Source of the DNA: a virus
Reading direction: 5' to 3' (one strand)
DNA length: 64,000 nt
IMG/VR virus record: IMGVR_UViG_3300045988_107309
The translations under genes were made by a program, and so were the position numbers. This document shows, piece by piece, positions 10,459 to 52,305 of the stretch (positions are counted from its first letter, which is position 1; each line of letters starts with the position of its first letter). The notes under the pieces were generated by a model. It saw only the letters and a list, made by a program, of their open reading frames with translations, ran no database searches and was not told the origin of the DNA.

Positions 10459-10869
10459 ATGCCTACAAGTGGTTTTAGAGGTATCAGTTATCCTTTCAGA
10501 ATTGGACCTCAAGGTGGTGTAGTAATGTCAACCACAAGTGCTACAGACCCAACACATATTGTGGAAAGTCTGAGACAGATATTTGGAACTCATTACTTAC
10601 AGAGAGTAATGGAAGCTGAAATCTATTCAGAACTTATCAATGTGGTGTTTGAACCGAATGATGAAACACTGCAAGCAATAGCAAAGACAAGAATCATGGA
10701 CGCTATTGAAAGACTTGAGGATAGAGTAGAGTCTTCTGAGGACAATATTCAATTCACAGTAGAAACAACAGACAGAGGTAGCTTTCTCTTTGCTACCATA
10801 ACTTTTAAAATTATCAAGTATGAGACTTGGTACACAGCAAAATTTGAGGTAGGTGAGGTAAATGAGTAG
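10459..10869 (+). CDS. baseplate wedge protein (gpW/gp25-like)
   Basis: 136 aa. Size, position and the N-terminal GISYPFRIGPQGG motif fit gpW/gp25. Confidence 0.7.
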   Translation: MPTSGFRGISYPFRIGPQGGVVMSTTSATDPTHIVESLRQIFGTHYLQRVMEAEIYSELINVVFEPNDETLQAIAKTRIMDAIERLEDRVESSEDNIQFTVETTDRGSFLFATITFKIIKYETWYTAKFEVGEVNE

Positions 10870-12340
10870 AAAACCAACACAAGGTATTGATTACACAAGT
10901 AGAGACTATGAAGCATACAGAACCCTTTTAATACAGGAGTTACAGAAACGTATGCCGGAGTACACTGATACAAGCCAGACTGACGCAGGTATTGTCATTA
11001 TTGAGTGCCTTGCTAACGGTCTGGATATTTGTAGTTTATACAGTGATGTGATTGCAAATGACTGTTTCTTGCCTACCACACAGGATAGAAGAATTGCGGT
11101 GTTGTTAGCAAGACAGTTAAGGTATATCGCAAAGAATCAAACAGCCAGTGTTATCCAACAGGTATTTGTTTTAGGTAATGTGATGGACAGAGACATTATC
11201 ATTCCTAAAGGTAGTGTTGTTCACACAGCCGAAAGCACTGATATGGTTATTGTTTATTTTGAGACTACAGATGACCTTATCATTCCTGCCGGAGAACTTG
11301 GTGATGAAAAGACAGAAGACGGTGAGTATAAGTATATGATTACTGTACAGCAAGGAACTTCTGTCAATGAAGACCTTTTAGGTACTTCAAACGGTCAACC
11401 TTATCAGTCCTTTAAACTGAATTATCAAGAGGTGCTTACAGACTCTATTCAGTTGATGATTGATGAAGGTAATGGATTTGAGTTGTGGACTCAAGTGAAC
11501 ACCTTTATTGACAGTGATGAAACAAGTAAACACTACACTGTGATAGTGGACGAATTTGATAACTGCTATGTTGAGTTTGGTAGTGGTGCAAGGGGTAAAA
11601 TTCCTGCTATCTTTGACAATGGTATTATTGCTTCATATAGAACTGGTGGAGGAACTATTGGTAACGTGAAAGCAAACACTATCATTGAACTGTCAGAGAG
11701 TGTAGCTTATGTGGAGAAGACTTTTAACCCTTATCCACCTTTAGTACTCGGTCACGAAAAAGAAAGTATTGAGGAGATTAGAGAAAATGCTCCTGCCGCT
11801 TTTAGGACTCAAGACAGAGCAATCACAGCACAGGACTATGCAGACCTTTTAAGAATCAATTTCTATGAGGTGTTGTCTGCTAAAGGTGTTCCAGATGAAA
11901 CCACAAAACTGAAAATGAATGTGTTCTATCTTATGAGACAAGATTATGAAATGACGGAGGAACTTCTGGAAAAGATTGCAGTGTTCTTTGACTCAAGAAT
12001 TATTCCGGGAACTTCTTATCAGTTTAAAGACCATGAGGAGTACAAAGTTAATCTTACTGCTAACCTTATCATTGATGATGACTATGACAAGGCTACTATT
12101 ACAGACTATGTGGAAGACTATGTGAAGAACACTTTCTTTGCTTATGGAAACATGAAGTTTGACACTAAGTTTGCAAAGTCTGAATTGGAGAGTCAAGTGA
12201 GAGAAACTTTTGCCGGAGTTGAGTCCTTTAGAATAATCTCCCCGGACAGTGATATAATCTCCCCGGATAGTGAAAGTAAGATTATCACTTTAGGAACACT
12301 CACATTAAATGTAACAGGTGGTAAAGTGAAGGAGGTGTAG
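10862..12340 (+). CDS. baseplate wedge protein (gpJ/gp6-like)
   Basis: 492 aa. It directly follows, and overlaps, the gp25-like gene. The N-terminus GIDYTSRDYEAYRTLLIQEL is typical of Baseplate_J proteins. Confidence 0.8.
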   Translation: MSRKPTQGIDYTSRDYEAYRTLLIQELQKRMPEYTDTSQTDAGIVIIECLANGLDICSLYSDVIANDCFLPTTQDRRIAVLLARQLRYIAKNQTASVIQQVFVLGNVMDRDIIIPKGSVVHTAESTDMVIVYFETTDDLIIPAGELGDEKTEDGEYKYMITVQQGTSVNEDLLGTSNGQPYQSFKLNYQEVLTDSIQLMIDEGNGFELWTQVNTFIDSDETSKHYTVIVDEFDNCYVEFGSGARGKIPAIFDNGIIASYRTGGGTIGNVKANTIIELSESVAYVEKTFNPYPPLVLGHEKESIEEIRENAPAAFRTQDRAITAQDYADLLRINFYEVLSAKGVPDETTKLKMNVFYLMRQDYEMTEELLEKIAVFFDSRIIPGTSYQFKDHEEYKVNLTANLIIDDDYDKATITDYVEDYVKNTFFAYGNMKFDTKFAKSELESQVRETFAGVESFRIISPDSDIISPDSESKIITLGTLTLNVTGGKVKEV

Positions 12341-12343
12341 TAT

Positions 12344-13969
12344 ATGTCAAAAGTAATGGACAGCAAAACATTCAGTGGAAAATTATATAATACACTTCCT
12401 GTTATGTACCACAATGCTGACAGTATGGTTGACTATGCCCTCAAGAGATATTTACAGGTGTTATCTGACGGAGGATATTCCTTTGTAGTAGATGAACTGA
12501 ATGGTATCTTAAATCTGAATGACCCAGAGAGAACTCCGTCCGAAGTGTTAGGTATTCTCTTTGAGCAGTATGGTTTACCTCTGTTCAATGGTATTCCAGA
12601 AGTATATCTGAGAAAGTTACTTCCTATCCTCGGAGACCTGTATGCCAGAAAAGGTGCTACTACAGTTATTGAATACCTTACTTCTATTATTTCTGATGTA
12701 AAAACGGATATTGTGATTAGTCCAGATTTTTTGAATGACTATCACATTGACCTTAAACTGGAAATGGACTACGACCAGACAGGTGCAAGAGACTTACCAG
12801 ATAGAGAACAACTCCTTAGAATTATTAAGGAGTTTTTGCCGTTCTTTATTGAGGTTACTATTGTCTTTGTGTATATGTTCTATGAGTCAGCAAAACTTCA
12901 AGGGAGAGAGAGTTTTGAGGACTATGTTACAGAAGTGAGAAGTGAGCATAGCAGACTTCTTAGTGGTAATAAAGAAGGACTGTTCCCCACTCTCAATAAC
13001 TTTGATTTAGGACTTAACAAAAGTATTTATCTGAATGAGTCTTATTACTATGATGTAGAGGTAGACTGGTTTAAAGACCACATTCTTACACACATTCTTG
13101 AGACTGGAACTCTTAACAGAAGCAAGTCTTGTGAGTACTACACTGGAACTTTAAACAATCCGGTGAAAGTGTTGAACCAGAGTGTTATTCTGAATGAGTG
13201 TATGGATTCTGATGAACTGGTTTCCACTGACATTGTAATTAAGCCACAGTTGGATAAGGTTAATCTCAAGCCTATAGAGTTTGCAGAGAATACCATGACC
13301 GAAATTTTGGAGGAAGAGACTGGTGTTCCGTCTGTAGGTATTCCAGATGAATATAATGCCCGATTTAAGATAGGTGCTACATTTGGTACAGCAGTATTTG
13401 GTAATGATGACTTCATTGTAGAAGTTGAAGAGTATATGGATAAGGTCACTTTCATTCAAAGTGATTCCGCAACTCTTAAACATGACTCTTCTACAGGACT
13501 CTTTAAGGGTGTTCTTAACAATTACACTATCCGAATGAATGATAACCTGTACACTAATGAGGGTGTTGATACTGATGATGTGGTTGACAGAGTAAGTCTT
13601 AGTGATGTTGCTGAACTTGGTGCTACAGAGAAGAAGACACTGTACATGGTTCTCAATCCATTCAGTTATTATGCTACACTCAACACTGGTTTTCTTCTCA
13701 ATAAAGACCTCATTACAAATGAGAGTCATACTGATATTGGTGAAGTAGTCTGTGCGGAGAATTTTGAAGATGTTCCAATGGACTCCTATTCTGACACAGA
13801 GACTTTCAGTTCCAGTGAGAAAGATGAAGAAATCATGGCATTTACTAATTTAGGTGTCTGTGCTTTAAATCACATGATATTGAATAGTATTCCGGCTTAT
13901 GATAAAATCATTGTGGGTGGAAAAGAAACAGTAGTGTACCCAACACAATACGGTTGTATATCAACATAA
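12344..13969 (+). CDS. baseplate/tail protein (gpI-like N-terminus)
   Basis: 541 aa. LYNTLPVMYH...LRKLLPILGDLYARKGAT resembles the P2 gpI family, and the gene follows the gpJ-like gene. Confidence 0.5.
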   Translation: MSKVMDSKTFSGKLYNTLPVMYHNADSMVDYALKRYLQVLSDGGYSFVVDELNGILNLNDPERTPSEVLGILFEQYGLPLFNGIPEVYLRKLLPILGDLYARKGATTVIEYLTSIISDVKTDIVISPDFLNDYHIDLKLEMDYDQTGARDLPDREQLLRIIKEFLPFFIEVTIVFVYMFYESAKLQGRESFEDYVTEVRSEHSRLLSGNKEGLFPTLNNFDLGLNKSIYLNESYYYDVEVDWFKDHILTHILETGTLNRSKSCEYYTGTLNNPVKVLNQSVILNECMDSDELVSTDIVIKPQLDKVNLKPIEFAENTMTEILEEETGVPSVGIPDEYNARFKIGATFGTAVFGNDDFIVEVEEYMDKVTFIQSDSATLKHDSSTGLFKGVLNNYTIRMNDNLYTNEGVDTDDVVDRVSLSDVAELGATEKKTLYMVLNPFSYYATLNTGFLLNKDLITNESHTDIGEVVCAENFEDVPMDSYSDTETFSSSEKDEEIMAFTNLGVCALNHMILNSIPAYDKIIVGGKETVVYPTQYGCIST

Positions 13970-13984: not shown

Positions 13985-14866
13985 ATGGCTTATAAGAGAA
14001 TAGTAACACAAGACGGTGTTACAGTAATGAATAAAGACCTGTATGACAATCTGCAAGATGGTATTGATGAATCTAAACAGGCAGTGCAAGACCTTGAAGA
14101 CAGTGTAGAGGAAAGTTTTAAAGAAGTAGACACTAAGTTGCAAGATTCTGGTGGTATAAAGTTTGATGGTGAAAGAGATATGATTATGATTAAGAATCCT
14201 TTCACTGGTGAATGGATTGACTGGCAAAGTTCTGGGAAGATTATACTCCCTTCAACTATTACCATTACTACAAATACTCTGGGTGGTAAACAAGTGACTT
14301 GTTTAATAGGAGGTAAAACTTATACCTCAGAGTTCTCTATCATTAGTGGTACTCAAGGTGTTGCAGTGTTTACTGTCTACGAAGATGGTGAAGCAGTGAT
14401 TACCTGTGAAAGCTATACTACTTCTGTCACTATACAGGAAAAAGGTGGAGGAACTTATTCTTTAAATTTAGAAGAAGTAACAGAACTTTTATTGTGGGAT
14501 GGAGAAAATTTTCATAATGGTGCTGAATGGTATAATGGACCAATATGGGGAATAAGATTGGAAACTAATGATTTGCAAAATAAGAAATTTATTATTCAGA
14601 CTGGTTCTTCTACAATATCCAATGTTAATTTTGAGTTATTTTTATATAAAGGACCTAATGGATTTATTACTTATTTTGCAGAAGGAAAATATAGCACCTC
14701 TGAAATAACTAATGTTCAAGTATGGTCTAATACAAGATATGAAATATCCATAGAGAAGTGTGTTGAACTTAAAGGAGTAACATCTGATGGTTTAACCTCA
14801 TTCTTATTGGGAATGACAGATGAAGTTGACCTTAGAAGGTATGTTACATCTGTTTCGTTAGTGTAA
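13985..14866 (+). CDS. putative tail fibre / distal tail protein
   Basis: 293 aa with a coiled-coil N-terminus and a beta-rich C-terminus. Called by position only. Confidence 0.4.
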   Translation: MAYKRIVTQDGVTVMNKDLYDNLQDGIDESKQAVQDLEDSVEESFKEVDTKLQDSGGIKFDGERDMIMIKNPFTGEWIDWQSSGKIILPSTITITTNTLGGKQVTCLIGGKTYTSEFSIISGTQGVAVFTVYEDGEAVITCESYTTSVTIQEKGGGTYSLNLEEVTELLLWDGENFHNGAEWYNGPIWGIRLETNDLQNKKFIIQTGSSTISNVNFELFLYKGPNGFITYFAEGKYSTSEITNVQVWSNTRYEISIEKCVELKGVTSDGLTSFLLGMTDEVDLRRYVTSVSLV

Positions 14867-14960
14867 AGTTTACAGTTGCTAAAAGCAAGAAAAGATGGTA
14901 TTCTTAATGGAAGAGTATCATCTTTTCAAACTCTAAAATATAAACAGGAGGTAATACAAA

Positions 14961-15542
14961 ATGAAAGAAAACGCAAAAGTCTATCAAAAGGACTCTGAGA
15001 ACCTTGTCTTGAATATGGGTAGTGAGTGTCTTTCTGATGTTCACATGACTGGTGAAATCATTGACACAATCCATTACAAAGACGGTAGAGTAGAGAAGAG
15101 AGTTGGACACAACCTTGTAGTCAACAACTTCTTGAAACTGGTAATGAGTCTTTTAAAGGGCGAAACTGGTTACAAAGGTATTCAGTACTGGGCTGTTGGT
15201 AGTGGTGCTTCAAGTTGGGATAACAGTATGCCGAGTCCTACTATTGATTCCACAAAACTGACTGCTGAGTTAGGAAGAGTGGCAATCACAGCAGGTGAGA
15301 TTAAATTCCTCACACCAGAGTATGAGGTGTCCAGTGTTCCGACAAATATCATTCAGATTACACACACTTTCGGTCCGTCTGATTGTAATGGTGTGTGGAG
15401 AGAGTTTGGTATCTTCGGTGGTAATGCTACTGCTACAAAAGATTCCGGTCTGATGATTAACAAACGTCACCATGCAATTATCACTAAGACCGAGGAAATG
15501 ACGATTGAGCGTGTAATGCGTTTCACTCTGAATTTAGTATAA
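14961..15542 (+). CDS. putative fibre-associated structural protein
   Basis: 193-aa ORF with a ribosome-binding site, directly upstream of the DGR target gene. No diagnostic motif. Confidence 0.4.
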   Translation: MKENAKVYQKDSENLVLNMGSECLSDVHMTGEIIDTIHYKDGRVEKRVGHNLVVNNFLKLVMSLLKGETGYKGIQYWAVGSGASSWDNSMPSPTIDSTKLTAELGRVAITAGEIKFLTPEYEVSSVPTNIIQITHTFGPSDCNGVWREFGIFGGNATATKDSGLMINKRHHAIITKTEEMTIERVMRFTLNLV

Positions 15543-15561
15543 TTAAAGGAGGAAATATAGA

Positions 15562-17454
15562 ATGGCAAGTTTTGATAAGTATTCAAACTACAAAGACAAT
15601 GCCGGAGTGTCTGGTGTTGTTTTTGGTGCTGAAAAACCTATCCTTGAAGTAGAAATGAATGAGGTGCAGGAAGTTCAGAAGAGTATGCTCCGCAAAGCCA
15701 TTAAGAATCTTATGGGTGATGGTATCACTGACCTCAGTAAGATTGTGTATGAGGGTGGAGCAGTAAAAGTAAAAGAGGGTTGTGCTTTAGCAGTTGATGG
15801 TTACATGATTGAAAGCACTGGACTCTCTCTTACAGCTTCAAGCGGAACTGTTTATCTTCAAGTGTGGGAAGAGACAGCTACTTACAGTGACACACTGAAA
15901 GAGGAAGGAAATCAGCAGGATAGTGTTACTGTAGCAAACTGGTTTAAAGACAATCGTTCTGACGCAGAGACTTCCAGACGTAAGGTTGTTAAATACAATC
16001 TGGCTTCTTCTACAGACAGTAATAAACATAATCTGGCTATTGCAAGTGTAGCTGATGGTGTTATGACAAGACTGTGTAAGGAGATTAGCTTTAGCAGTCT
16101 TTCCAGTCAAGTGATTGACCTTAGAGTACAGATGGGTACTTACGGTGAGGGTGTTCTGGGTGTTGAAGTAGACCTTGAGAATAACTCTGTTGTAAGAACA
16201 GGTGACAATCAGTACTGGTCTCCGGGAGCAGATTATGACAACTCTCCTATCTATGGTGGTAGAAAAAGATGTGTTGTAAAAGATGACGGAACGATTGTAG
16301 CTTTCTATGGTGAAGAGGGTTACACAGAGACAGGTGCTTTGACTGTAGCAGTAGGAGAAAATGTAGTAGGTACTAAAGTACAGTGTATGGTTATGCAACC
16401 TGCTTTCTACTACAAGAGAATCCCTCTCAAACTTGAGAAACAGGTTGATGACACCTATCAAGTTAAAGGCTATCACATGACTAAGTGGGTTGACCTTATC
16501 AGTCCTGTAAGCAGAGACGGATTTAGTCTTCACCCGGCATTTAAGAAAGGTGACACAGAGATTGCTTACTATCTGATTGGAGAGAATGATGGCTGTCTTG
16601 AGAACTCAAGCGGTTATGATATGAATGACAACACTGTTACTCTTGGTTCTTCTCCTTACAGTGGTATTAAGATGGCTTCTATTGCAGGTGCTAAACCTGC
16701 CAGTGGTGCTTCTGCCGGAAGTACTAAGAACAACAGTCTTACAAGAGACGCAGTAAGAAAAGTGTGTGCAAACAGAGGAACAGGTTGGCAACAGCTTGAC
16801 TTCACTATTGCAAGTGCAGAGCAGATGTTATTCGTGGTAGAGTATTCTACTTTTAACATTCAAGCTATCACTACTTTCGGCAGTGGTGTTACAGATATGC
16901 CTTATGTAACTAATGTAAATGACTCCATTCCTAACCCGACTAACACAGCACTGGGTAATGGAAGTGGTAAGATTGAAGTTACTTACACACACTCCAATGG
17001 AACAGAGTACACAAAGTATGTTCCTGTTTACAGAGGTGTTAAGAATCCTTTCGGTAACATCTGGAAGTTTGTTGATGGTTTCCTTAGAAAACATTCTGCC
17101 GGAACTGATAAGAACGAAGCATTTTGGCAGGACGGAAGTAAAGCCTTTTCTGACGCTATTGCAGACTATATTGCCTGTGGATTTAGCTGTGCTACAGCAG
17201 AGGGTTATGTTAAAGCATTTGGTTATGATGAAAATTGTGACTGGTGCTATATGACCTCTTTAACAGGTGGAGACAGTAGCAAACCTGTAGGTGATTACTA
17301 TTGGGTTAATATGAGTAGTAATAACCTCTATATTGCCCTATTGGGTGCGTATTGGGATAATGGTGCGCAGGCTGGGTTGTTCTATTGGACTCTGCATGAT
17401 GTGGCTTCTTATCGTGATTGTATTATCGGCGGCCGCTTGTGCAGAAAAGCGTAA
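15562..17454 (+). CDS. DGR target protein: tail fibre / receptor-binding protein with C-terminal variable region
   Basis: 630 aa. The last ~35 codons match the downstream TR except at TR adenines. The C-terminus ..YWDNGAQAGLFYWT..GGRLCRKA looks like a C-type-lectin (CLec/FGE) fold. Confidence 0.85.
   Translation: MASFDKYSNYKDNAGVSGVVFGAEKPILEVEMNEVQEVQKSMLRKAIKNLMGDGITDLSKIVYEGGAVKVKEGCALAVDGYMIESTGLSLTASSGTVYLQVWEETATYSDTLKEEGNQQDSVTVANWFKDNRSDAETSRRKVVKYNLASSTDSNKHNLAIASVADGVMTRLCKEISFSSLSSQVIDLRVQMGTYGEGVLGVEVDLENNSVVRTGDNQYWSPGADYDNSPIYGGRKRCVVKDDGTIVAFYGEEGYTETGALTVAVGENVVGTKVQCMVMQPAFYYKRIPLKLEKQVDDTYQVKGYHMTKWVDLISPVSRDGFSLHPAFKKGDTEIAYYLIGENDGCLENSSGYDMNDNTVTLGSSPYSGIKMASIAGAKPASGASAGSTKNNSLTRDAVRKVCANRGTGWQQLDFTIASAEQMLFVVEYSTFNIQAITTFGSGVTDMPYVTNVNDSIPNPTNTALGNGSGKIEVTYTHSNGTEYTKYVPVYRGVKNPFGNIWKFVDGFLRKHSAGTDKNEAFWQDGSKAFSDAIADYIACGFSCATAEGYVKAFGYDENCDWCYMTSLTGGDSSKPVGDYYWVNMSSNNLYIALLGAYWDNGAQAGLFYWTLHDVASYRDCIIGGRLCRKA
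17335..17438 (+). repeat. DGR variable region (VR)
   Basis: 104 nt align without gaps to 17671..17774. There are 18 mismatches, 17 of them at TR adenines. Confidence 0.85.
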
Positions 17455-17630
17455 TCACTAAAAATATTGAAGAAAGGAGAAGCTATTCTTCTTTACAAAA
17501 CACTTCATAAAGGTTATAATGTAGTCGGTGAATGTAACGAAACACTACACCACCAAAACAGGTAAAGATTTGGGTTATAAGCGGTCAAGACATTACACAG
17601 ATATTCTCTTGCCACCAACAGTACACATGG

Positions 17631-17669
17631 AATACTTGGACACTCAGTAATTTGGGTGTTCCAAGTATT
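17631..17669 (+). other. 10-bp perfect inverted repeat abutting the 5' edge of the TR
   Basis: aatacttgga (17631-40) and tccaagtatt (17660-69) are perfect complements with a 19-nt loop. Confidence 0.6.
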
Positions 17670-17670
17670 T

Positions 17671-17774
17671 ACCCTATTGGGTACGAATTGGAATAATGGT
17701 ACGAATACTGAGTTGTTCTATTGGAATCTGAATAATGTGGCTTCTAATCGTAATTGTAATATCAGCGACCACTT
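17671..17774 (+). repeat. DGR template region (TR)
   Basis: Non-coding copy of the VR. It carries 31 adenines and, read in the VR frame, 10 AAT codons. It lies 229 nt upstream of the reverse-transcriptase ATG. Confidence 0.85.
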
Positions 17775-18003
17775 CACGGCACTGTACTCAGTTTCGGAAG
17801 TGTTTACTTTTGAAATAAATTAAAATCCGTGTAACTTCTTTACCTTACCTCTCTAACGTGGGTTAGGTCATTAGTGTTAAATGACACAAGTATGATGGTA
17901 GAACATATAGTGTTTCACGACAGCAATAAGTCTTGTTGGTAGCTGATGAAAGATTGTACACCTTTATAAGCGTTTGAAGATTAGACTTTGGAGTACATGG
18001 AAA

Positions 18004-19155
18004 ATGAAGCGTCACCTGTACCCTTTAGACCCTGTGACTGGGAAAGAAGATAGGACGCTTACAATATGGGAGAGAATTTGTTCCATAGAAAACTTGAGAC
18101 TTGCACACAAAAATGCGAGTAAAGGTAAACATTGGTACAAAGAGGTTCGTGACTTTGATAAAGACCCAGAGAAGTACTTGAAACAGATACAGGATATGTT
18201 AGTGTCAAGGACTTACTCACCACTTCCTTATGAGAGATTCACAAGAAAAGAACGTGGTAAAGAAAGAGTTATCTACAAGTCACGATACTTCCCAGAAAGA
18301 GTTATACAGTGGGCTGTCTTACAGGTTATATCTCCTATCCTCTTGAGACAACTTATCTATGACACATACTCGGCAATTCCAGATAGAGGTATTCATCTGG
18401 CATTTAAAAGAGTTAGGAGTGATATACAGAGTGATGTTGAAGGAACGAAGTACTGTTTAAAGATGGACGTTAAGAAATTCTATCCGTCAATAGACAGAGA
18501 AATTCTTCTGAATGATTATCACAGGATATTTAAAGATGAAGGACTACTGTGGTATCTCGATTTAAACATTACAAAGTCTCCCGATACTGGTATTCCGATT
18601 GGTAACTACTTATCACAATTCAGTGGCAACTTTTATTTATCACCTTTCGACCACTGGATAAAAGAAGTTAAGGGTGTGAAGTACTATTACAGATATATGG
18701 ACGATATTGTTATCCTCCATTCCTCAAAAGAGTACTTGCAAGAACTAAAATGGGAGATTATAAAATACATGAGGGAAGAAAGACACCTTACAATCAAGGA
18801 CAATTATCAAGTATTCCCTGTAGCAAAAAGAGGAGTAGATTTTGTCGGGTACAGAGTGTTCCCGGATTTTGTGTTATTAAGAGCGTCTACTGCTAAGAAC
18901 ATGAAGTCAAAGATGGCTAAGATTCTCAGAAAAGTAGAAAGCGGAACAGAAATGTCTTACTCTGATTATTGTTGTATCAATTCTTATAAAGGTTGGCTGT
19001 CATATTGCAATAGTTACAGATTGTACACTAAGTACTTTAAACCTTTAGAGAAACCTGTGGAGGAGTATTACAATAAACACTTAAAGAATGGAGGAAAGAA
19101 AGCCAATGAAAACAATGGAAAATGTTCAGTCAACAGTAAAACCAAAGGAAGTTGA
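18004..19155 (+). CDS. DGR reverse transcriptase
   Basis: YRYMDDIVIL (YxDD box), IGNYLSQFSGNFYL (a DGR-clade motif) and an adjacent TR/VR pair. The track ORF starts at 17974; the first ATG is at 18004. Confidence 0.9.
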   Translation: MKRHLYPLDPVTGKEDRTLTIWERICSIENLRLAHKNASKGKHWYKEVRDFDKDPEKYLKQIQDMLVSRTYSPLPYERFTRKERGKERVIYKSRYFPERVIQWAVLQVISPILLRQLIYDTYSAIPDRGIHLAFKRVRSDIQSDVEGTKYCLKMDVKKFYPSIDREILLNDYHRIFKDEGLLWYLDLNITKSPDTGIPIGNYLSQFSGNFYLSPFDHWIKEVKGVKYYYRYMDDIVILHSSKEYLQELKWEIIKYMREERHLTIKDNYQVFPVAKRGVDFVGYRVFPDFVLLRASTAKNMKSKMAKILRKVESGTEMSYSDYCCINSYKGWLSYCNSYRLYTKYFKPLEKPVEEYYNKHLKNGGKKANENNGKCSVNSKTKGS

Positions 19156-19399
19156 GTATGATGGCAACCATGTGTATGTGAATACCAACGTCAAAGAAGT
19201 TCCAGAGAGTGAAAGAGTGGCTGAAAAAGAGCAGTTGGAAGACGGTCAAGAATTAGTTCCTCTGTACTCTTACACTGTGCAGGAGTATGAGAAAGACGAG
19301 TTTTTAACCGCACTATCCGCAGGGCAGGTTACTCTTAATGAGAGAGCAACTGCTATGGAGGATATGATTTTGGAAATGAGTGAGGTTGTCTATGCTTAG
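19106..19399 (+). CDS. hypothetical acidic protein overlapping the 3' end of the RT gene
   Basis: ORF 19088..19399. The ATG at 19106 follows a GGAGG site. The protein is acidic and has no recognised motif. Confidence 0.4.
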   Translation: MKTMENVQSTVKPKEVEYDGNHVYVNTNVKEVPESERVAEKEQLEDGQELVPLYSYTVQEYEKDEFLTALSAGQVTLNERATAMEDMILEMSEVVYA

Positions 19400-19451
19400 T
19401 GTATTAGACCGACTTCGCCTTTTCATAACTTTTGGAAAGGAGGGAGACACC

Positions 19452-19595
19452 ATGATTGCAATGCTTTGGGCACAGAGAATTATGAATGGCAAGAAGACTT
19501 ATGATGAAGTTCCAAGACTGTTAAAAGAGCAGGTTAAGGAAATTCTGATTGAGAGTGGTGTAGAGTTTCTGATTACAGAAACACCTGCACAGTAA
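19452..19595 (+). CDS. small XkdX/CD1375-like protein, copy 1
   Basis: 47 aa from ATG 19452 (AAAGGAGGGAG ribosome-binding site): MIAMLWAQRIMNGKKTYDEVPRLLKEQVKE. It is a paralogue of the next small ORF, close to the holin and lysin genes. Confidence 0.5.
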   Translation: MIAMLWAQRIMNGKKTYDEVPRLLKEQVKEILIESGVEFLITETPAQ

Positions 19596-19625
19596 CACCA
19601 CAACAGCATAAGGAGGTAAATACCT

Positions 19626-19763
19626 ATGAAGACTATTTCAATCCTTTGGGCTGATAAGATTATCGCAGGAGACAGGACTTATGCTCAAGTTCCTGCACAG
19701 CTCAAAGATGAAGTAAAACAGGCTTTGACAGAGAAAGGTCATGCCAAACTTGCTAAAGCCTAA
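19626..19763 (+). CDS. small XkdX/CD1375-like protein, copy 2 (not in the ORF track)
   Basis: 45 aa with a TAAGGAGG ribosome-binding site: MKTISILWADKIIAGDRTYAQVPAQLKDEVKQALTEKG. It shares the LWA..I..G..TY..VP..LK..VK pattern with copy 1. Confidence 0.5.
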   Translation: MKTISILWADKIIAGDRTYAQVPAQLKDEVKQALTEKGHAKLAKA

Positions 19764-19769
19764 GTGCAT

Positions 19770-19807
19770 AAAGACCTTTGAATTTTAATAATTCAGAGGT
19801 CTTTTTG
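19770..19807 (+). terminator. rho-independent terminator
   Basis: aaagacctttgaa / ttcagaggtcttt form a 13-bp stem (one G-U pair), followed by TTTTT. Confidence 0.7.
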
Positions 19808-19870
19808 TGTAGACATAGCTTTCTTAATGTGGTATTATTTAATAAGCAACTTAAAGAGAGGAGAACTGTG

Positions 19871-20473
19871 ATGGATAAATCTTTGTTAGATTTACTTTCA
19901 GAAGTAACTGGTGTTCAGTTACTCATGGCTATTCTCTTGATAATTGCTCTTATTGTTCTGGCTCTAACACAAAAGCAGAAAATATCGAAGTATTTAAACA
20001 AGTGGAGAAAGACTAAAAACGAAGAAGAAGACTTTCATGCTCTGGTTTATGAATTGAAAAACTCTATGATAGAGTTGGGGAAGAAGATTGAGGAAAATCG
20101 TACTGAAAGAGAAAATGAGAGAACTCACGACAGAGAGGACTCAAGAAAAATTCGTAAAGAAATGTATGAGGTAATGAACAGACAGTCACAACAGATTGAA
20201 AAACAGTCTGGACAGATTGAGGAATTAAAGAACATTACCCTCGAAATTCAAAAGAAAAATTCAGAAACAAAAAGGGCAGAAATCAAAGAGAAGATTGAGC
20301 GTATTTACAGGGAGTGCCACCCGGCTATGTGTTGTACAGATATGCAGTTTGAGACATTAAAAGACCTCATAGAACAGTATGAGAAACATGATGGGGATAA
20401 CTCTTTTGTACATAGCACTGTACAGAAAGAAATGTACTCATGGCAGATTATCAAAGAAATAAAGAGTCTTTAA
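19871..20473 (+). CDS. membrane-anchored coiled-coil protein (possible lysis accessory)
   Basis: ATG 19871 follows GAGAGGAG and lies downstream of the terminator. It has an N-terminal transmembrane segment (LLMAILLIIALIVLAL) followed by a charged coiled coil. Confidence 0.5.
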   Translation: MDKSLLDLLSEVTGVQLLMAILLIIALIVLALTQKQKISKYLNKWRKTKNEEEDFHALVYELKNSMIELGKKIEENRTERENERTHDREDSRKIRKEMYEVMNRQSQQIEKQSGQIEELKNITLEIQKKNSETKRAEIKEKIERIYRECHPAMCCTDMQFETLKDLIEQYEKHDGDNSFVHSTVQKEMYSWQIIKEIKSL

Positions 20474-46161: not shown

Positions 46162-46541
46162 TAGTTTTGAAGTGGCTGTTTTTTATTGTAGTAGGGGTTG
46201 TTATTGAACATTATGTTTTCCCACTTGTTAATGTGTGTGGTAACAGTATGCTCCCCACCTACCAAGATGGGGAGATTGTTTTTTCTACAAGGATTTTCAG
46301 AAAGAACAAAATCAAGCCGGGAGACGTTATGGTGTTTAGACACCCTACAGTAAGAAACAGACTGTTAATTAAAAGAGTAGATAAGGTGTTCAAGAATAAT
46401 CATGGTGAAATACAGTCCATATACTTCTTAGGAGACAATGCCCCAGACAGTTATGACAGCAGAAATTTCGGTTATGTTTTAATGAAAGACCTTGTTTCAA
46501 AAGTCATTAAACCAAGAAAGAAGGAGGACATTTCATTATGA
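46158..46541 (+). CDS. S26-family signal peptidase I-like serine protease
   Basis: N-terminal transmembrane segment, GNSMLPT (catalytic Ser), LIKRV (Lys) and GDNAPDSYDSRNFG. Confidence 0.65.
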   Translation: MIVLKWLFFIVVGVVIEHYVFPLVNVCGNSMLPTYQDGEIVFSTRIFRKNKIKPGDVMVFRHPTVRNRLLIKRVDKVFKNNHGEIQSIYFLGDNAPDSYDSRNFGYVLMKDLVSKVIKPRKKEDISL

Positions 46542-48679
46542 ATTTGAGTGATTACACTATCATTAAGAAAGATGGAACTCTTGAACCTTTTAAGCCGGAG
46601 AAGATTGTCAATGCTGTTACAAAATCTTCTAATAGGGTTATGATTACCCTCAGTGAACAGAAGAAGCAGGAGATTGTAAGAGAAGTTGAAGAAGCTGTTT
46701 TGAAAAAGGAAAACACACAGATTCCAGTGCCGGAAATGCACAATCTTGTAGAACTTGCACTGGATAAGATTGACCCAGTGATTGCAAAAAGCTACAGAGA
46801 CTACAGGAACTATAAACATGACTTTGTACACATGATGGACCAAGTGTATGTGAAGTCACAGAGTATCAGACATATTGGTGATAAGGAGAACAGTAACACA
46901 GACAGCACACTTGTTGCCACTAAGAGGTGTCTGATATTTAATGAGTTAAACAAAAGACTTTACCGCAGGTTCTTTATGACAAAAGATGAACTCCAAGCGT
47001 GTAAGGAAGGGTATATATATATCCACGACCAGTCGGCTCGTTTAGACACAATGAACTGTTGCCTGTTTGATATTGCCAGTGTAATGAGTGGTGGTTTTGA
47101 AATGGGTAATCAGTGGTACAATGAACCGAAAACTCTTGACACTGCCTTTGATGTACTGGGAGACATTATTCTGTCTTGTGCTTCACAGCAGTATGGTGGA
47201 TTTACAGTGCCGGAGGTAGATAAGATTTTAGCACCTTACGCAGAAAAGAGTTACAAGAAATACATGGAGGAATACCTTGAGATTAGAGGTCAACAGACAG
47301 TGACTAAAGATTGTGCTGACTGGGCTTTCCGCAAAGTAGAAAGAGACTATGAACAGGGATTTCAAGGTATTGAAATGAAGCTCAACACTGTGGGGAGTTC
47401 CAGAGGTGACTATCCATTCATCACTATGACTTTAGGGTTAGGAACACAGCGTTTTGAAAAACTTGCTTCTATCACTTTCCTCAGAGTACACAAAGAGGGT
47501 CAAGGTAAGCCGGGATTTAAGAAACCTGTACTCTTCCCGAAAATCGTATTTCTGTATGATGAAGAACTTCATGGTGAAGGGTGTGTCAATGAAGATGTAT
47601 TTGAAGCAGGTATTGACTGTTCCAGTAAGACCATGTACCCAGACTGGTTATCATTAACTGGTGAGGGATATGTAGCTGAAATGTACAAAAAGTATAAGAG
47701 AGTTGTCAGTCCTATGGGTTGTAGAGCGTTCCTTTCTCCGTGGTATGAACGTGGAGGAATGACACCTGCTGATGAAGATGATAAGCCAGTGTTTGTAGGA
47801 AGATTTAACATTGGTGCTGTCAGTCTTCATCTTCCAATGATACTTGCCAAAGCCAGAAGAGAGAATAAGGATTTCTTTGAAGTGCTTGACTATTACCTTG
47901 AAATGATTAGAGGTATTCACAAGAGAACTTATGATTATCTGGGTGAAATGAGAGCAAGTGTCAATCCAGTAGCTTACTGTGAAGGTGGTTTCTATGGTGG
48001 ACACTTACAGCCACATGAAAAGATTAAACCACTTTTGAAATACACAACAGCGTCTTTTGGGTTCACAGCTTTAAATGAACTCCAAGAGTTATACAACGGA
48101 AAGTCACTTGTTGAAGATGGTGAGTTTGCTTTAAAGGCTATTCAACACATCAACACCAGAATACAGCAGTACAAAGCAGAGGATAATATTCTGTATGCTA
48201 TCTATGGAACTCCGGCAGAAAGTCTTTGTGGACTCCAAGTAGAACAGTTCCGTAAAGAGTTTGGTATTGTTGAAAAGGTGAGTGACAGACCTTATGTGTC
48301 AAACTCTTTCCATTGTCACGTTACAGAGGATATTACTCCTATTCAGAAACAAGACCTTGAAAAGAGATTCTGGGATTTATCCAATGGTGGTAAAATCCAG
48401 TATGTAAGATACCCATTAGGGTACAATGTTGAAGCAATCCGCACACTTGTAAGGAGAGCCATGAAAATGGGATTCTATGAGGGTGTGAACCTGTCTTTAG
48501 CATATTGTGATGATTGTGGACACCAAGAACTTGAAATGGACGTATGCCCTGTATGCGGTTCTAAGAATCTGACAAAAATTGACCGTATGAATGGATACTT
48601 GTCTTATTCCAGAGTGAAAGGTGATACAAGACTCAATTCAGCTAAAATGGCTGAGATTGCAGAAAGAAAATCAATGTAA
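46538..48679 (+). CDS. nrdD: anaerobic ribonucleoside-triphosphate reductase (class III)
   Basis: 713 aa with an N-terminal ATP-cone-like region, C-terminal CDDCGH...CPVCGS and a glycyl-radical RMNGYL motif. Confidence 0.9.
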   Translation: MNLSDYTIIKKDGTLEPFKPEKIVNAVTKSSNRVMITLSEQKKQEIVREVEEAVLKKENTQIPVPEMHNLVELALDKIDPVIAKSYRDYRNYKHDFVHMMDQVYVKSQSIRHIGDKENSNTDSTLVATKRCLIFNELNKRLYRRFFMTKDELQACKEGYIYIHDQSARLDTMNCCLFDIASVMSGGFEMGNQWYNEPKTLDTAFDVLGDIILSCASQQYGGFTVPEVDKILAPYAEKSYKKYMEEYLEIRGQQTVTKDCADWAFRKVERDYEQGFQGIEMKLNTVGSSRGDYPFITMTLGLGTQRFEKLASITFLRVHKEGQGKPGFKKPVLFPKIVFLYDEELHGEGCVNEDVFEAGIDCSSKTMYPDWLSLTGEGYVAEMYKKYKRVVSPMGCRAFLSPWYERGGMTPADEDDKPVFVGRFNIGAVSLHLPMILAKARRENKDFFEVLDYYLEMIRGIHKRTYDYLGEMRASVNPVAYCEGGFYGGHLQPHEKIKPLLKYTTASFGFTALNELQELYNGKSLVEDGEFALKAIQHINTRIQQYKAEDNILYAIYGTPAESLCGLQVEQFRKEFGIVEKVSDRPYVSNSFHCHVTEDITPIQKQDLEKRFWDLSNGGKIQYVRYPLGYNVEAIRTLVRRAMKMGFYEGVNLSLAYCDDCGHQELEMDVCPVCGSKNLTKIDRMNGYLSYSRVKGDTRLNSAKMAEIAERKSM

Positions 48680-48706
48680 TTATTGAAGAAAGGAAGGTAG
48701 CACTTA

Positions 48707-48982
48707 ATGAGTAATGAAAGTATTAAAGTACTGAGAATTTCCGGCTCGTCTCCTACAAAGGAGACTGCCGGGAGCATTGTTAAGACCTACGAAGCAGGTC
48801 ATACAAAGATTGAGTTAAGAGCCATTGGAGCGTCAAGTGTAAACCAGATGTTCAAAGCTATGGCTACTGCCAGTAGTATCTTTGCTCAAAAAGGAAAAGT
48901 CTTATCTTTTAGACCGGGATATGATGTAGCAGACATTGACGGTGATAAGACTGTGTTAATCGCAAGACTGATTGTGGAATAA
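48707..48982 (+). CDS. spoVS: SpoVS-like protein
   Basis: 91 aa. IKVLRISGSS..TAGSIV......IELRAIGASSVNQMFKAMA parallels stage V sporulation protein S. Confidence 0.65.
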   Translation: MSNESIKVLRISGSSPTKETAGSIVKTYEAGHTKIELRAIGASSVNQMFKAMATASSIFAQKGKVLSFRPGYDVADIDGDKTVLIARLIVE

Positions 48983-48998
48983 GAAAGGAGAATTTATT

Positions 48999-49520
48999 AT
49001 GTATTTTAAAGAAGCATTAGAAGCTATGAAACAGGGTCACAAAGTTAAACTCCCGTCATGGGGTGGTTACTGGTGTTGGGATAATGACAAACAGACCATT
49101 ATGATGTACTGTAAACAGGAAGACGTTGACAAGGGGCAGAAGTCACCTTTAGATATTCGTGAGACACAGAGGGTTGAATACACTCTCACAAATGTTCTCA
49201 GTGATGAATGGGTGATTGCAGATGAACACAACACTCCTTTAATGGGTGGTGTTGCAACATTCTCTTTCGGTGAAGCAATTAAGTACATGAAACGTGGATT
49301 GAAAGTGAAGCGTAAAGGGTGGAATGGTAAGAACCAGTACATTGAACTTGCTTCATGTATCAGCTACAAGAATCCAGAGGGTGACATTGTGAATGTTGAG
49401 CATGAGAACATTGGTAACAATGCTATTGCCTTTGTAGGCACATCTGGTGTACAGATGGGGTGGCTTGCCAGTCAAGCAGATATGCTTGCTGATGACTGGT
49501 GTTTTGCAAAGGAGGTATAA
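48999..49520 (+). CDS. tandem DUF2829 (Tad2-like) protein
   Basis: Two repeats: FKEALEAMKQGHKVKLPSW...LSDEWVIA and FGEAIKYMKRGLKVKRKGWNGKNQYI...WLASQADMLADDWCF. Confidence 0.7.
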   Translation: MYFKEALEAMKQGHKVKLPSWGGYWCWDNDKQTIMMYCKQEDVDKGQKSPLDIRETQRVEYTLTNVLSDEWVIADEHNTPLMGGVATFSFGEAIKYMKRGLKVKRKGWNGKNQYIELASCISYKNPEGDIVNVEHENIGNNAIAFVGTSGVQMGWLASQADMLADDWCFAKEV

Positions 49521-49521
49521 T

Positions 49522-49938
49522 ATGCTGACAGTTACAAAACACTTTGGATTTGAAGCGTGTCATCACCTCCCTTACTATGAAGGTGCTTGTCACAACATTC
49601 ATGGACACTCTTACAAACTTGATGTAACAGTTGGAGGTAATATCATTAAAGATACAAACAATCCGAAGTGCGGAATGATTGTAGACTTTAAAGACTTGAA
49701 GAAGATAGTCAAGGAGAATGTAGTGGACAAATACGACCACAGTAACCTCAATGACTTTTTTGAAAATCCCACTGCTGAAATTATGGTAGTGGATATTGCC
49801 TACTCAATCATGCAGAAGTTACCGAAGGAAGTGTACCTTGTGAGTGTGAAACTGTGGGAGACTGAGGACAGTTACGCAGAATATATTCCAAGCTATGACT
49901 ACATTCAGCCGGGAAGTATTTTAAAATCAGCAACTTAA
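49522..49938 (+). CDS. queD: 6-carboxy-5,6,7,8-tetrahydropterin synthase
   Basis: FEACHHLP....CHNIHGHSYKLDV. ATG 49522 follows a GGAGG site. Confidence 0.85.
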   Translation: MLTVTKHFGFEACHHLPYYEGACHNIHGHSYKLDVTVGGNIIKDTNNPKCGMIVDFKDLKKIVKENVVDKYDHSNLNDFFENPTAEIMVVDIAYSIMQKLPKEVYLVSVKLWETEDSYAEYIPSYDYIQPGSILKSAT

Positions 49939-49951
49939 AGGAGGTAAGACT

Positions 49952-50593
49952 ATGTTATACTATGATGAAATTTTCTGTAGCATACAGGGTGAGTCTACTG
50001 ATACTGGTCTTCCTTGTGTATTTATTCGTTTGTTTGGGTGTCCTATTGGTTGTTCTTATTGCGACCAACCTCAGAAGAAAGAGGACAGAAAGAGAATTTC
50101 TGTGGGTAACATAGTCCAAACAGTACTCAAAGAGTACAAGTGGTGTAAGAACATCTGCTTGACTGGTGGAGAACCTTTAATCTATGATGAAGCACTTCCA
50201 TTGGTATATGAATTACAATCACTGGGATTTAAAGTCTCCATTGAGACGAGTGGTTGTGTTCCTTTGGAAGAACCTTGTTACAGACGAAGCTACAAATATG
50301 TGATGGACATTAAAGGTCCTTCCAGTGGAGTGAAACACAAGAACATTTATGAGAATCTTTTAAAACTCCAAAACACTGACGAGGTTAAGTATGTCATCAA
50401 GGACAGAGAAGACTATGAGTTTATGAAGGGAGTAATGAAGAAATATCCTACTTCCGCAAAAATTCTTGTCAGTCCTATGTTTGACCCAGATGGAAAAGCA
50501 TACATTGGACATGAGTTAGTTGATTGGATTCTGGAAGACCATTTAGATGTTCGTGTGCAGATACAGCTTCATAAGATTTTGGAGGTAAAGTAA
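49952..50593 (+). CDS. queE: 7-carboxy-7-deazaguanine synthase (radical SAM)
   Basis: SIQGEST..GLPCVFIRLFGCPIGCSYCD. Confidence 0.85.
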   Translation: MLYYDEIFCSIQGESTDTGLPCVFIRLFGCPIGCSYCDQPQKKEDRKRISVGNIVQTVLKEYKWCKNICLTGGEPLIYDEALPLVYELQSLGFKVSIETSGCVPLEEPCYRRSYKYVMDIKGPSSGVKHKNIYENLLKLQNTDEVKYVIKDREDYEFMKGVMKKYPTSAKILVSPMFDPDGKAYIGHELVDWILEDHLDVRVQIQLHKILEVK

Positions 50594-50594
50594 T

Positions 50595-50864
50595 ATGGCA
50601 AAGCAATATAGAAAGAAACCAGTAGTGATTGAAGCAGTGCAATTTCTGGATAACCCAGAAAGACTTTGTGAGCTTTCGGAGTTTATCACTACTCAAGATT
50701 TAAGGGTTAATTATGAAGACCCAGAAAATCCTGTACTCAAGATTGAGACACTTGAAGGTGTTATGAACGCAAGTGTGGGAGATTATATCATCAAGGGTGT
50801 CAACGGAGAATATTATCCATGCAAACCAGACATTTTTGAAAAGACTTATGAGGAGGTGAAGTAA
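50595..50864 (+). CDS. hypothetical protein inside the deazaguanine cluster
   Basis: 89-aa ORF with a ribosome-binding site. Confidence 0.5.
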   Translation: MAKQYRKKPVVIEAVQFLDNPERLCELSEFITTQDLRVNYEDPENPVLKIETLEGVMNASVGDYIIKGVNGEYYPCKPDIFEKTYEEVK

Positions 50865-50865
50865 G

Positions 50866-50943
50866 ATGGCTTGCGGAACAAAAAGTAAAGGTGGAAGTAA
50901 GAAGGGTACTAAAAAAGGAAGTAAGAAAGGTGGTAGAAAATAA
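50866..50943 (+). CDS. 25-aa Lys/Gly-rich peptide (not in the ORF track)
   Basis: MACGTKSKGGSKKGTKKGSKKGGRK. GAGGAGGTG lies upstream, and its stop forms a TAATG overlap with the next gene. Confidence 0.3.
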   Translation: MACGTKSKGGSKKGTKKGSKKGGRK

Positions 50944-51269
50944 TGTATTCAAGACCAGTTGACCCAGAAGAATTGAAATGGCAGAGAAGGGATGACGCAA
51001 GAACCTTAGCCAGAGCAGAAGAAATCAAAGCAGACAAAGAAAGATATGATGGAGCTAAGATTGGAGCTAAAGAGATTTTAGCAGAAGAGACAGCAAGACT
51101 CAATGGACTGAATAAAGTAGCAGGAAGAAAACCTGTTAGAACATCACAGCCAGAAGAGAATAAACAGCAGAGAAACGTAGGTCAACCTCTTTATCATAAT
51201 CCGGTGAATAAAGCTAAACCTTCAAGAAGTTCTCTTCCGGCTGATATTCCAGATGTGTTTCGGAGGTAG
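50943..51269 (+). CDS. hypothetical protein inside the deazaguanine cluster
   Basis: 108-aa ORF. Confidence 0.45.
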   Translation: MYSRPVDPEELKWQRRDDARTLARAEEIKADKERYDGAKIGAKEILAEETARLNGLNKVAGRKPVRTSQPEENKQQRNVGQPLYHNPVNKAKPSRSSLPADIPDVFRR

Positions 51270-51272
51270 TTT

Positions 51273-51890
51273 ATGAAAGAAAAGATTGTTGTACTTAACA
51301 GTGGTGGCTTTGATAGTGTGTGTCTGTGCCACTATGTAAGAGACCAACACCCAGACGCAGAAATTCACTCCCTTCATTTTGAATATGGAAACAGAAATCG
51401 ACTCATGGAAACTTATTGTGCTAAGAAGGTGTGTAAGAAACTGAACATGATTTATCATAATGTGAGACTTGACCCTATTAGATGGACAGCAAGTACTCTC
51501 TATGGTAGAAAACACTCAGACCCAGATGGTGACGCTCAGTATTTAGAGTACCGCAATCTTATCTTCATGGCTTATGCTTCTTCTTTAGCACAAGGAATTG
51601 GTAGTAAGAAAATCTATGTAGCTGTGATTAAATCAATTCCGGGGCATGAATACATTGACTGTACTGGTGAGTTCTTTAATAATCTTGAGCAGGTGTTGAA
51701 AGACTCTGATATAAAGATTGAAACACCATTCATAGATATGGATAAATGGGATTTTAAAGATATAGCCAGACAGCACAATATTACTCCGGCAGATTTCTTT
51801 TCATGTAACGAGCCAACACTGAAAATTTTCCCTTGTGGGAAGTGTCCAGATTGTCTTGCACTTGAAGAAATTTATGGCGAAACGTATTGA
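51273..51890 (+). CDS. queC: 7-cyano-7-deazaguanine (preQ0) synthase
   Basis: PP-loop VVLNSGGFDS and a C-terminal zinc site C..CGKCPDC. Confidence 0.85.
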   Translation: MKEKIVVLNSGGFDSVCLCHYVRDQHPDAEIHSLHFEYGNRNRLMETYCAKKVCKKLNMIYHNVRLDPIRWTASTLYGRKHSDPDGDAQYLEYRNLIFMAYASSLAQGIGSKKIYVAVIKSIPGHEYIDCTGEFFNNLEQVLKDSDIKIETPFIDMDKWDFKDIARQHNITPADFFSCNEPTLKIFPCGKCPDCLALEEIYGETY

Positions 51891-52013
51891 CTTTGATAAG
51901 CTCCTCTGATATAGTAAGAGAAGGTTAAGAAAACGTACTTTAACAGGTGTTTATGTATATTCCCCTGTTATAAGAACACCCTTAATCAAATATACAAAAA
52001 GGAGGACGAAACT

Positions 52014-52160
52014 ATGATGAAAGCATACGCAGGTCCTAGCAATGGACGTAGTGGTGGTAATTCTACTCGTAGCGGTAGAGGTGGTAATGTTATTCAGAGA
52101 GCTGGAAGAGCTATCCGTAATGGTATTTCCAACGTAGTAAACCGTGTTCGTGGTCGATAA
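52014..52160 (+). CDS. 48-aa Arg/Gly-rich basic protein (not in the ORF track)
   Basis: MMKAYAGPSNGRSGGNSTRSGRGGNVIQRAGRAIRNGISNVVNRVRGR. It has an AAAGGAGG ribosome-binding site and its own terminator. Confidence 0.45.
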   Translation: MMKAYAGPSNGRSGGNSTRSGRGGNVIQRAGRAIRNGISNVVNRVRGR

Positions 52161-52185
52161 TCGTCACACAGCCAAAAGTAAGAGA

Positions 52186-52222
52186 GCATTGGGTTGACAA
52201 TAGGTTGACCCAGTGCTTTTTT
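52186..52222 (+). terminator. rho-independent terminator
   Basis: gcattgggttgac / gttgacccagtgc form a 13-bp stem (three G-U pairs), followed by TTTTTT. Confidence 0.65.
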
Positions 52223-52305
52223 ATGTTATATGAGAGTGTTACACACTTTTTTATTGACAAATATGTGGGTTAGTGATACGCTTTCTTTTATAAGGAGGTG
52301 TTATT

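Follow-up and report, generated by a model that had tools for sequence, protein, structure and literature searches.

How does a phage diversify its own receptor-binding protein when its mutagenic cassette lacks the accessory gene avd, which the prototype of such systems, BPP-1, requires for complementary DNA (cDNA) synthesis? The question is raised by positions 15562–19155 of a 64,000-nucleotide (nt) stretch of viral DNA, the IMG/VR record IMGVR_UViG_3300045988_107309 (this whole 64-kb stretch is hereafter called the window). These positions carry a diversity-generating retroelement (DGR), in which a target gene ending in a variable repeat (VR) is followed by a template repeat (TR) and then by a gene for a reverse transcriptase (RT), all on the plus strand. 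With high confidence, we read it as an active, Avd-less DGR of the target–TR–RT type (architecture A1, most like lineage 3), belonging to a contractile-tailed phage of Clostridia-type gut bacteria. An earlier note on this DNA had proposed a complete DGR, and the complete order—a target with a C-terminal VR, then the TR, then a DGR-type RT—was recovered by the present analysis.

The repeat pair carries the first part of the argument. A computed gap-free alignment at an offset of 336 nt places TR 17671–17774 against VR 17335–17438 and gives 18 mismatches over 104 aligned nt, 17 of them at TR adenines, reproducing exactly the figures that the earlier note had obtained by hand. Since 17 of the 31 TR adenines differ, as against 1 of the 73 other bases (Fisher p = 2.9e-10), the mismatches do cluster at TR adenines, as that note had held. 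The same pair, at 106 nt, heads the direct-repeat families in a repeat search (17333–17438 and 17669–17774, 83% identity), and the adenine-masked TR pattern picks out the TR, the VR and nothing else in the window (0 matches in 100 shuffles), so that the element has a single target. Read in the VR frame, the TR (17669..17774, plus strand) with its 31 adenines contains exactly 10 AAT codons and no AAC codon, whereas the VR (17333..17438, plus strand) is in frame from codon 592 and spans codons 592–626 of the 630 in the open reading frame (ORF) 15562..17454; both the codon count and the frame agree with what had been claimed before. The gaps between target and TR and between TR and RT hold only a 40-amino-acid (aa) ORF and a 55-aa ORF in the TR frame.

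The diversified part of the VR extends over about 17335–17427, and its 3' end at 17428–17438 (GGCGGCCGCTT) is the presumed initiation of mutagenic homing (IMH) element, with the 3' end of the TR, AGCGACCACTT, as the presumed IMH*. These 3' ends differ by three A-to-G changes (VR GGCGGCCGC vs TR AGCGACCAC), which recur in almost all related VRs examined, the exception being one locus (L006) that retains A at the third site; from this recurrence, the three sites look like fixed IMH/IMH* differences rather than diversified positions.

The target (15562..17454, plus strand) is a 630-aa protein of the tail-fibre or receptor-binding type, as the ORF list and a match to phrog_5302 'tail protein' (E = 4.1e-74, residues 150–629) indicate. 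Its gene comes directly after the baseplate genes of a contractile-tail module (a gp25-like gene at 10459–10869 and large ORFs at 10862–12340 and 12344–13969), and its relatives in tblastn searches are annotated tail or tail-fibre proteins adjoining RTs in phage fEV-1 and crAss-like phages; the tail-fibre target supposed earlier is thereby upheld. Because both Pfam and phmmer against the PDB missed the C-terminal domain, structure prediction was needed. The AlphaFold2 model of residues 381–630 (16702..17451, plus strand), built with 114 homologues, has a mean pLDDT of 89 and a pTM of 0.87, and its best Foldseek match in the PDB is the DGR variable protein TaqVP (5vf4; E = 3e-6, probability 1.0), followed by Mtd (1yu0–1yu4, probability 0.66–0.91) and then by classical C-type lectins. 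The C-type-lectin (CLec) scaffold of DGR variable proteins, which had been suspected from the letters, is thus supported by the predicted fold; in alignments the domain bears a conserved YRG(I/V)xNxxGNIWxFVDG motif in addition to the variable tip. The target shares with TaqVP and BPP-1 Mtd both the CLec fold and the placement of the variable residues at the C-terminal end, but differs from them in showing no sequence-level similarity (phmmer against the PDB), in TM-scores of only 0.35–0.55, and in having a long N-terminal fibre part of about 380 aa.

The RT gene (18004..19155, plus strand) begins with an ATG at 18004, preceded by GGAG at 17990, and lies 229 nt past the TR. Its product of 383 aa, with an isoelectric point (pI) of 9.4, carries IGNYLSQ as motif 4 and YMDD as motif 5, and both YMDD and IGNYLSQFSGNFYL stand in the ORF translation at the place where the earlier note had read them; gene calls on related contigs independently give the same 383-aa product. 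It matches Pfam RVT_1 (E = 4.6e-17) and phrog_1423 'reverse transcriptase' (E = 2e-117), whereas its best sequence match in the PDB is the Bordetella phage DGR RT bRT (8ub7, E = 7e-34), about twenty orders of magnitude ahead of the next, a group II intron RT (2.5e-13), with 32% identity across the full length of bRT. By its motifs, the bRT match, phrog_1423 and the possession of relatives with adenine-biased TR/VR pairs, the RT can be placed in the DGR clade.

Is the element still at work? For comparison, the 80 closest IMG/VR loci encoding related RTs (34–99% RT identity) were gathered, and in about 60 of them self-comparison reveals a TR shortly before the RT, with at least one adenine-mutated VR 170–600 nt upstream of the TR. 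More telling is a near-identical set comprising the window and four contigs from different samples (L044, L116, L119 and L120), each about 97% identical to it. The TR is identical at 106 of 106 positions in all five, though their flanks differ by about 3%, whereas the VRs of the four differ from that of the window at 14–16 positions. When the five VRs are compared, variation is seen in 25 of the 31 TR-adenine columns and in 3 of the 75 remaining ones (p = 1.5e-15)—the adenine-specific polymorphism that the earlier note had looked to metagenomic sequences to provide. An identical TR accompanied by VR variation at TR-adenine columns in five phages speaks for an active element: as judged by this comparison between samples, not within one population, the DGR is currently active.

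Several observations on these relatives may be added. The only three non-adenine TR/VR mismatches among the five phages are all T-to-G (window position 17370, L044 VR index 6 and L120 VR index 45), a pattern that may reflect a secondary misincorporation bias of the RT, the sample being three mismatches only. Members of the same RT clade (L042, L046–L048, L051–L058 and L070) have two or three VRs per TR, and these multiple VRs sit in tandem small target genes of about 130 aa just upstream of the TR (e.g., at 3771, 4186 and 4614 in L055). In L108, 7597–11539 (identical in L109), the same tail-module backbone, with an upstream protein 67% identical, bears a different cassette: the target is split and contains DUF6273, an ORF of 137 aa separates it from the RT, and RT identity is only 23%. 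This suggests whole-cassette replacement between DGR lineages. A megablast search of window positions 14000–20000 against 50,697 phage records returned no match, so that the phage is without a close sequenced relative in that collection.

The absence of Avd was examined by scanning all 107 window ORFs of 75–260 aa, on both strands, against Pfam, with BPP-1 Avd included twice as a control. None of the 107 matched bAvd (PF22296) at E <= 0.1, whereas the controls did so at E = 7e-36, and none gave a strong match to the four-helix-bundle family PF05635; the ten nearest neighbour ORFs contain no Avd, HRDC or MutS-like domain by Pfam. The same holds across the clade: in Pfam searches with the positive control, none of the 146 ORFs that surround the RT in 24 diverse members matched Avd, and in 42 related loci with the same target–TR–RT order, the target–TR and TR–RT gaps are too short for an Avd gene. 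Thus, the earlier claim that no Avd is recognisable stands. The further claim that its absence is unusual does not, because, in the set of 372 DGRs of Wu et al. 2018, avd is present in 74% and 29% belong to architecture A, which has no accessory gene, and because their lineage 3 is without avd and has the order target–TR–RT (PMC5758913); the same cassette without avd, assigned to lineage 3, was likewise described for crAssphage LMMB (PMC7290462). The element is therefore a further example of the known, published Avd-less target–TR–RT DGRs (architecture A1 of Wu et al. 2018), and appears most like lineage 3 in its architecture, in the similarity of its RT to crAss-like RTs and in a shared spacer RNA.

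One small ORF within the cassette was considered and set aside. A 40-aa basic ORF at 17528–17650, between the promoter described below and the TR, was rejected as a mini-Avd, being interrupted by frameshifts or stops in L004, L007 and L009; it is kept only in the near-identical phages and is broken at 77–83% identity, so that the nucleotides there are probably conserved as RNA.

Between the target stop codon and the TR lies a sigma-70-type promoter, TTTACA-17-TATAAT (17492..17520, plus strand), which fits at 11 of 12 positions, is the best site in 17300–19500 and has both hexamers conserved in relatives 77–97% identical. It is the presumed start of a TR–spacer–RT transcript, and its conservation at this place would imply that this transcript is a dedicated one, separate from late tail-gene transcription. 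The spacer (Sp) RNA itself (17775..18003, plus strand) fills the 229 nt between TR and RT, and alignments, covariation in relatives and manual pairing point to a hairpin immediately after the TR (17769–17801), a putative helix P1 (17846–17849 paired with 17897–17900) whose loop carries a lineage-specific insertion of 47 nt, then an A-rich linker, and a putative helix P2 (17930–17936 paired with 17980–17986) that encloses UGGUAG at 17937–17942, a variable hairpin and UGAAG at 17975–17979.

The core of this arrangement is strongly supported in relatives across the clade. Blocks of spacer sequence are conserved across RTs only 35–50% identical, and the consensus runs from a P1 hairpin (YRCC-loop-GGYR) through an AAAACA linker to a P2 that encloses UGGUAG, a variable hairpin and YCGAAS, the third pair of P2 being typically a U-U mismatch. 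RNAalifold recovers P1 with compensatory changes, and in a 20-sequence alignment the P1 and P2 columns pair in 83.6% of cells, as against 64% when shuffled and 31–44% in slid-register controls, with 51 double-change cells as against 17 when shuffled. The covariance model built from this alignment, R1, was run on 93 sources and matches 73 sites (e.g., 2323–2397 in L022), each of them shortly before an RT and on its strand, and many in loci outside the training set; it reaches the lineage-3 crAssphage LMMB (L121, 2387–2469) at 53.9 bits. It finds no match in BPP-1, and a scan of window positions 15000–20000 against Rfam at E <= 1 returned no known RNA family. BPP-1 has template:primer and cPRT-stop duplexes (bioRxiv 10.1101/2023.10.23.563531). 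Pairing of the UGGUAG region with sequence upstream of the TR, as an analogue of the cPRT-stop, or with the TR 3' end, as an analogue of the template:primer duplex, did not exceed shuffled controls across loci, and within the subgroup to which the window belongs it was no more than marginal, which leaves any correspondence to the BPP-1 priming site A56 (GGUGGUCA) speculative.

Set beside BPP-1 (mtd-avd-TR-brt), the window cassette shows the same plan with particular departures. Common to both are a phage tail-fibre target with a C-terminal CLec variable region, a TR upstream of an RT with (I/V/L)GxxxSQ and YMDD, adenine-specific TR-to-VR differences, a GC-rich IMH contrasting with IMH* at the 3' ends, and a structured spacer RNA between TR and RT. 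In BPP-1, however, avd sits between mtd and the TR, the VR–TR distance is 556 nt rather than the 336 nt found here, and a hairpin after the VR is needed that is not conserved in the window's lineage, whereas the window RT ends in a basic tail of 41 aa, a small acidic ORF is coupled behind its gene, and the spacer model of its clade is foreign to BPP-1. The likeness is closer to the lineage 3/A1 DGRs of crAssphage LMMB, crAss-like cr55_1, Yersinia phage fEV-1, Lactobacillus phage LBR48 and Psychrobacillus phage Perkons. These share target(VR)–TR–RT with short gaps and without avd (crAss-like phages, Perkons, LBR48 and fEV-1 show target–gap–RT and no avd in their annotation), RTs 36–52% identical to that of the window (36–44% for the crAss-like RTs alone), a CLec-type VR ending in GGRL-like residues, what appears to be the same spacer core before the RT, composed of the P1 hairpin, AAAACA and GURY-UGGUAG ... 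CGAA ... RYUC, and a small ORF where the RT gene ends. The window phage departs from them in being a Clostridia-type myovirus, not crAss-like or enterobacterial, and in the 47-nt P1-loop insertion and 33-nt variable hairpin of its spacer.

The small ORF at the RT 3' end bears on another statement of the earlier note, which had spoken of a missing accessory gene. Although the absence of Avd holds, "no accessory gene" may be too strong, because a conserved small acidic ORF overlapping the RT 3' end had been overlooked. In the window, it encodes 97 aa with a pI of 4.3 (19106..19399, plus strand; phrog_18126), overlaps the RT by 50 nt and has a GGAGG ribosome-binding site at 19090–19094. In about 30 of the RT-anchored loci, a hidden Markov model of the family detects a homologue immediately behind the RT, and a profile search of a 5.8-billion-protein collection yields 297 clusters. 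The AlphaFold2 model of the protein (pLDDT 78) is a beta-sheet plus helices and has no fold match in the PDB. As a divergent Avd it was rejected, the hhalign probability against BPP-1 Avd being 0.2% and the fold not a four-helix bundle. Following it, between the DGR and the holin/lysin region, are two tandem CD1375/XkdX-like small genes (19380–19595 and 19626–19763), and the same pair stands after the post-RT ORF in many related prophages.

What this ORF does can be seen in two ways. On the first, to which we incline by a little, it is an ordinary gene of the tail or lysis module, e.g., XkdW-like, and the RT, together with host factors and its RNA, performs mutagenic retrohoming alone. The order of fibre, small proteins, holin and lysin is the usual one and the two CD1375/XkdX-like genes continue it; Wu et al. 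classed 29% of DGRs as being without an accessory gene; and the protein, with its pI of 4.3, has no evident nucleic-acid-binding features. Against this view, an RT is directly upstream in all 18 of the 18 independent genomic contexts retrieved through nine of the family's proteins, with no homologue away from it, and tblastn detects none in the 50,697 phage records. The 97-aa protein is also missing from a related phage whose backbone carries another RT lineage. The specific identification as XkdW was rejected, fold searches having returned neither XkdW nor any known tail protein.

On the second, which we regard as possible but rather doubtful, the 97-aa protein is a dedicated non-Avd accessory protein, i.e., a lineage-specific cofactor, perhaps related to CH1, that works with the conserved spacer RNA. 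The coupling to the RT speaks for it: the overlap, about 50 nt in the window's near-identical relatives, is 4 nt (ATGA) in 15 Lachnospiraceae prophage contexts, and the linkage persists across the 18 contexts despite differing holins, lysins and upstream tail genes. More broadly, in 75 of the 80 RT-anchored loci an ORF begins between -125 and +90 nt relative to the RT stop (e.g., 5001–5267 in L085 and 3744–4079 in L115); most of these ORFs encode 74–143 aa with a pI of 4.1–5.3, and they fall into seven sequence families (F1–F7). The window's family is linked by hhalign to the crAss-like post-RT family (76% probability, E = 2e-5), and a fold search of BFVD returns among its top matches cr55_1 gp060, which was verified as exactly the ORF overlapping that phage's RT 3' end; the absence of the protein from the backbone with another RT lineage also speaks for it. 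A precedent exists in the CH1 genes of Bacteroides (architecture E, lineage 3a), which are likewise small and acidic (pI ~4.7), have no known motifs and occur only in DGRs without avd, HRDC and MSL (Wu et al. 2018, PMC5758913), as the window DGR is also without avd; the likeness is one of general description, and CH1 proteins are longer at 160–169 aa. Against such a cofactor, the linkage could be mere synteny in related tail-lysis modules, where the XkdX/CD1375-like genes follow in the same order; hhalign shows no similarity of the 97-aa family to the post-RT ORFs of LBR48, fEV-1 and LMMB; the BFVD matches are weak (E = 0.04–0.1, with a probability of 0.25 for cr55_1); F2, second in size among the post-RT families, is neither acidic nor linked to the 97-aa family; and RNA binding of the Avd kind is unlikely because the protein is acidic. 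The 97-aa protein is, from its conservation and gene order, a candidate DGR accessory factor of the Avd-less clade.

Generalised, this becomes the proposal that Avd-less DGRs of the lineage-3 type are not accessory-free but employ undescribed, fast-evolving small acidic proteins coupled to the RT 3' end (the 97-aa ORF and the crAss-like post-RT ORFs), which would act with a spacer RNA junction (P1, UGGUAG/CGAA and P2) replacing the Avd-binding RNA elements of BPP-1. We put it forward tentatively, as the less probable outcome.

For the active, Avd-less target–TR–RT element that we favour overall, the following course of events may be proposed. The promoter at 17492–17520 would drive an RNA containing the TR, the structured spacer and the RT message. 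The RT would copy the TR into cDNA, misincorporating opposite template adenines—a step attributed from the behaviour of the family, its outcome being visible in the VR patterns—and the cDNA would then replace the VR at the 3' end of the tail-fibre gene, with the direction of transfer probably set by the GC-rich IMH GGCGGCCGC as opposed to the IMH* AGCGACCAC. The 10 AAT and other adenine-containing codons would thereby randomise surface residues of the C-type-lectin tip, and the randomised tip would change receptor specificity and so presumably host range. The RNA-positioning roles of Avd would presumably be taken by the lineage-specific fold of the spacer RNA and possibly, though this is speculative, by the RT-coupled acidic protein.

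Several points weigh against this reading. The VR differences are seen between contigs of different samples, not in reads from a single population. The GC-rich hairpin or cruciform of the BPP-1 style is represented after the VR by only a 5-bp stem with an 8-nt loop, in a region folding at -7.9 kcal/mol (z = -0.9), and the 3' arm of the stem is not conserved in L004–L009; not all DGRs, however, have a GC-rich hairpin at this place. The R1 model finds its best match in the window at the right place, but at only 6.4 bits (E = 0.11), because of the two insertions in the P1 loop and at the junction, and so the placement of P1 and P2 rests on alignment with L004–L009 and on manual pairing. In the Avd scan, a weak PF05635 match would be listed only at E below ~2e-4 to 2e-3, so that a very divergent Avd could escape. 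The assignment to lineage 3, finally, is provisional, resting on architecture, crAss-like RT similarity and the shared spacer RNA. That the repeats are a decaying DGR remnant, with VR differences arising from ordinary mutation or from recombination between phages, is very improbable: the between-sample nature of the comparison and the single T-to-G mismatch in each of three VRs might be cited in its favour, but the RT ORF is unbroken and retains every catalytic motif, the promoter and spacer RNA are conserved, and VR variation of 13–15% is confined to TR-adenine columns beside a TR identical in five phages with diverged flanks.

Elsewhere in the window, a nucleotide-metabolism block at 46538–53558 encodes an anaerobic ribonucleotide reductase NrdD (46538–48679), a Tad2-like Thoeris anti-defence domain protein (48972–49520), a radical-SAM QueE-like protein (49952–50593), QueC (51273–51890) and GTP cyclohydrolase I (52986–53558), with a PTPS/QueD match outside the block. 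Taken together, the block and this match suggest 7-deazaguanine modification of the phage DNA.

In light of the above, a gut myophage of the Clostridia type diversifies its receptor-binding tip, and adds one more well-documented case to the known DGRs; what the analysis adds is direct evidence of activity from the comparison of samples, a spacer RNA motif found across the clade, and a small protein, coupled to the RT, as a candidate for an Avd-independent mechanism. The Avd-less state was known before; to our knowledge, DGR reverse transcription has been studied biochemically and structurally only in the Avd-dependent BPP-1 system. The spacer RNA core and the RT-coupled protein offer testable candidates for how about a quarter of DGRs manage without Avd, and an RT with its RNA, with or without the 97-aa protein, may provide a more compact tool for targeted mutagenesis.

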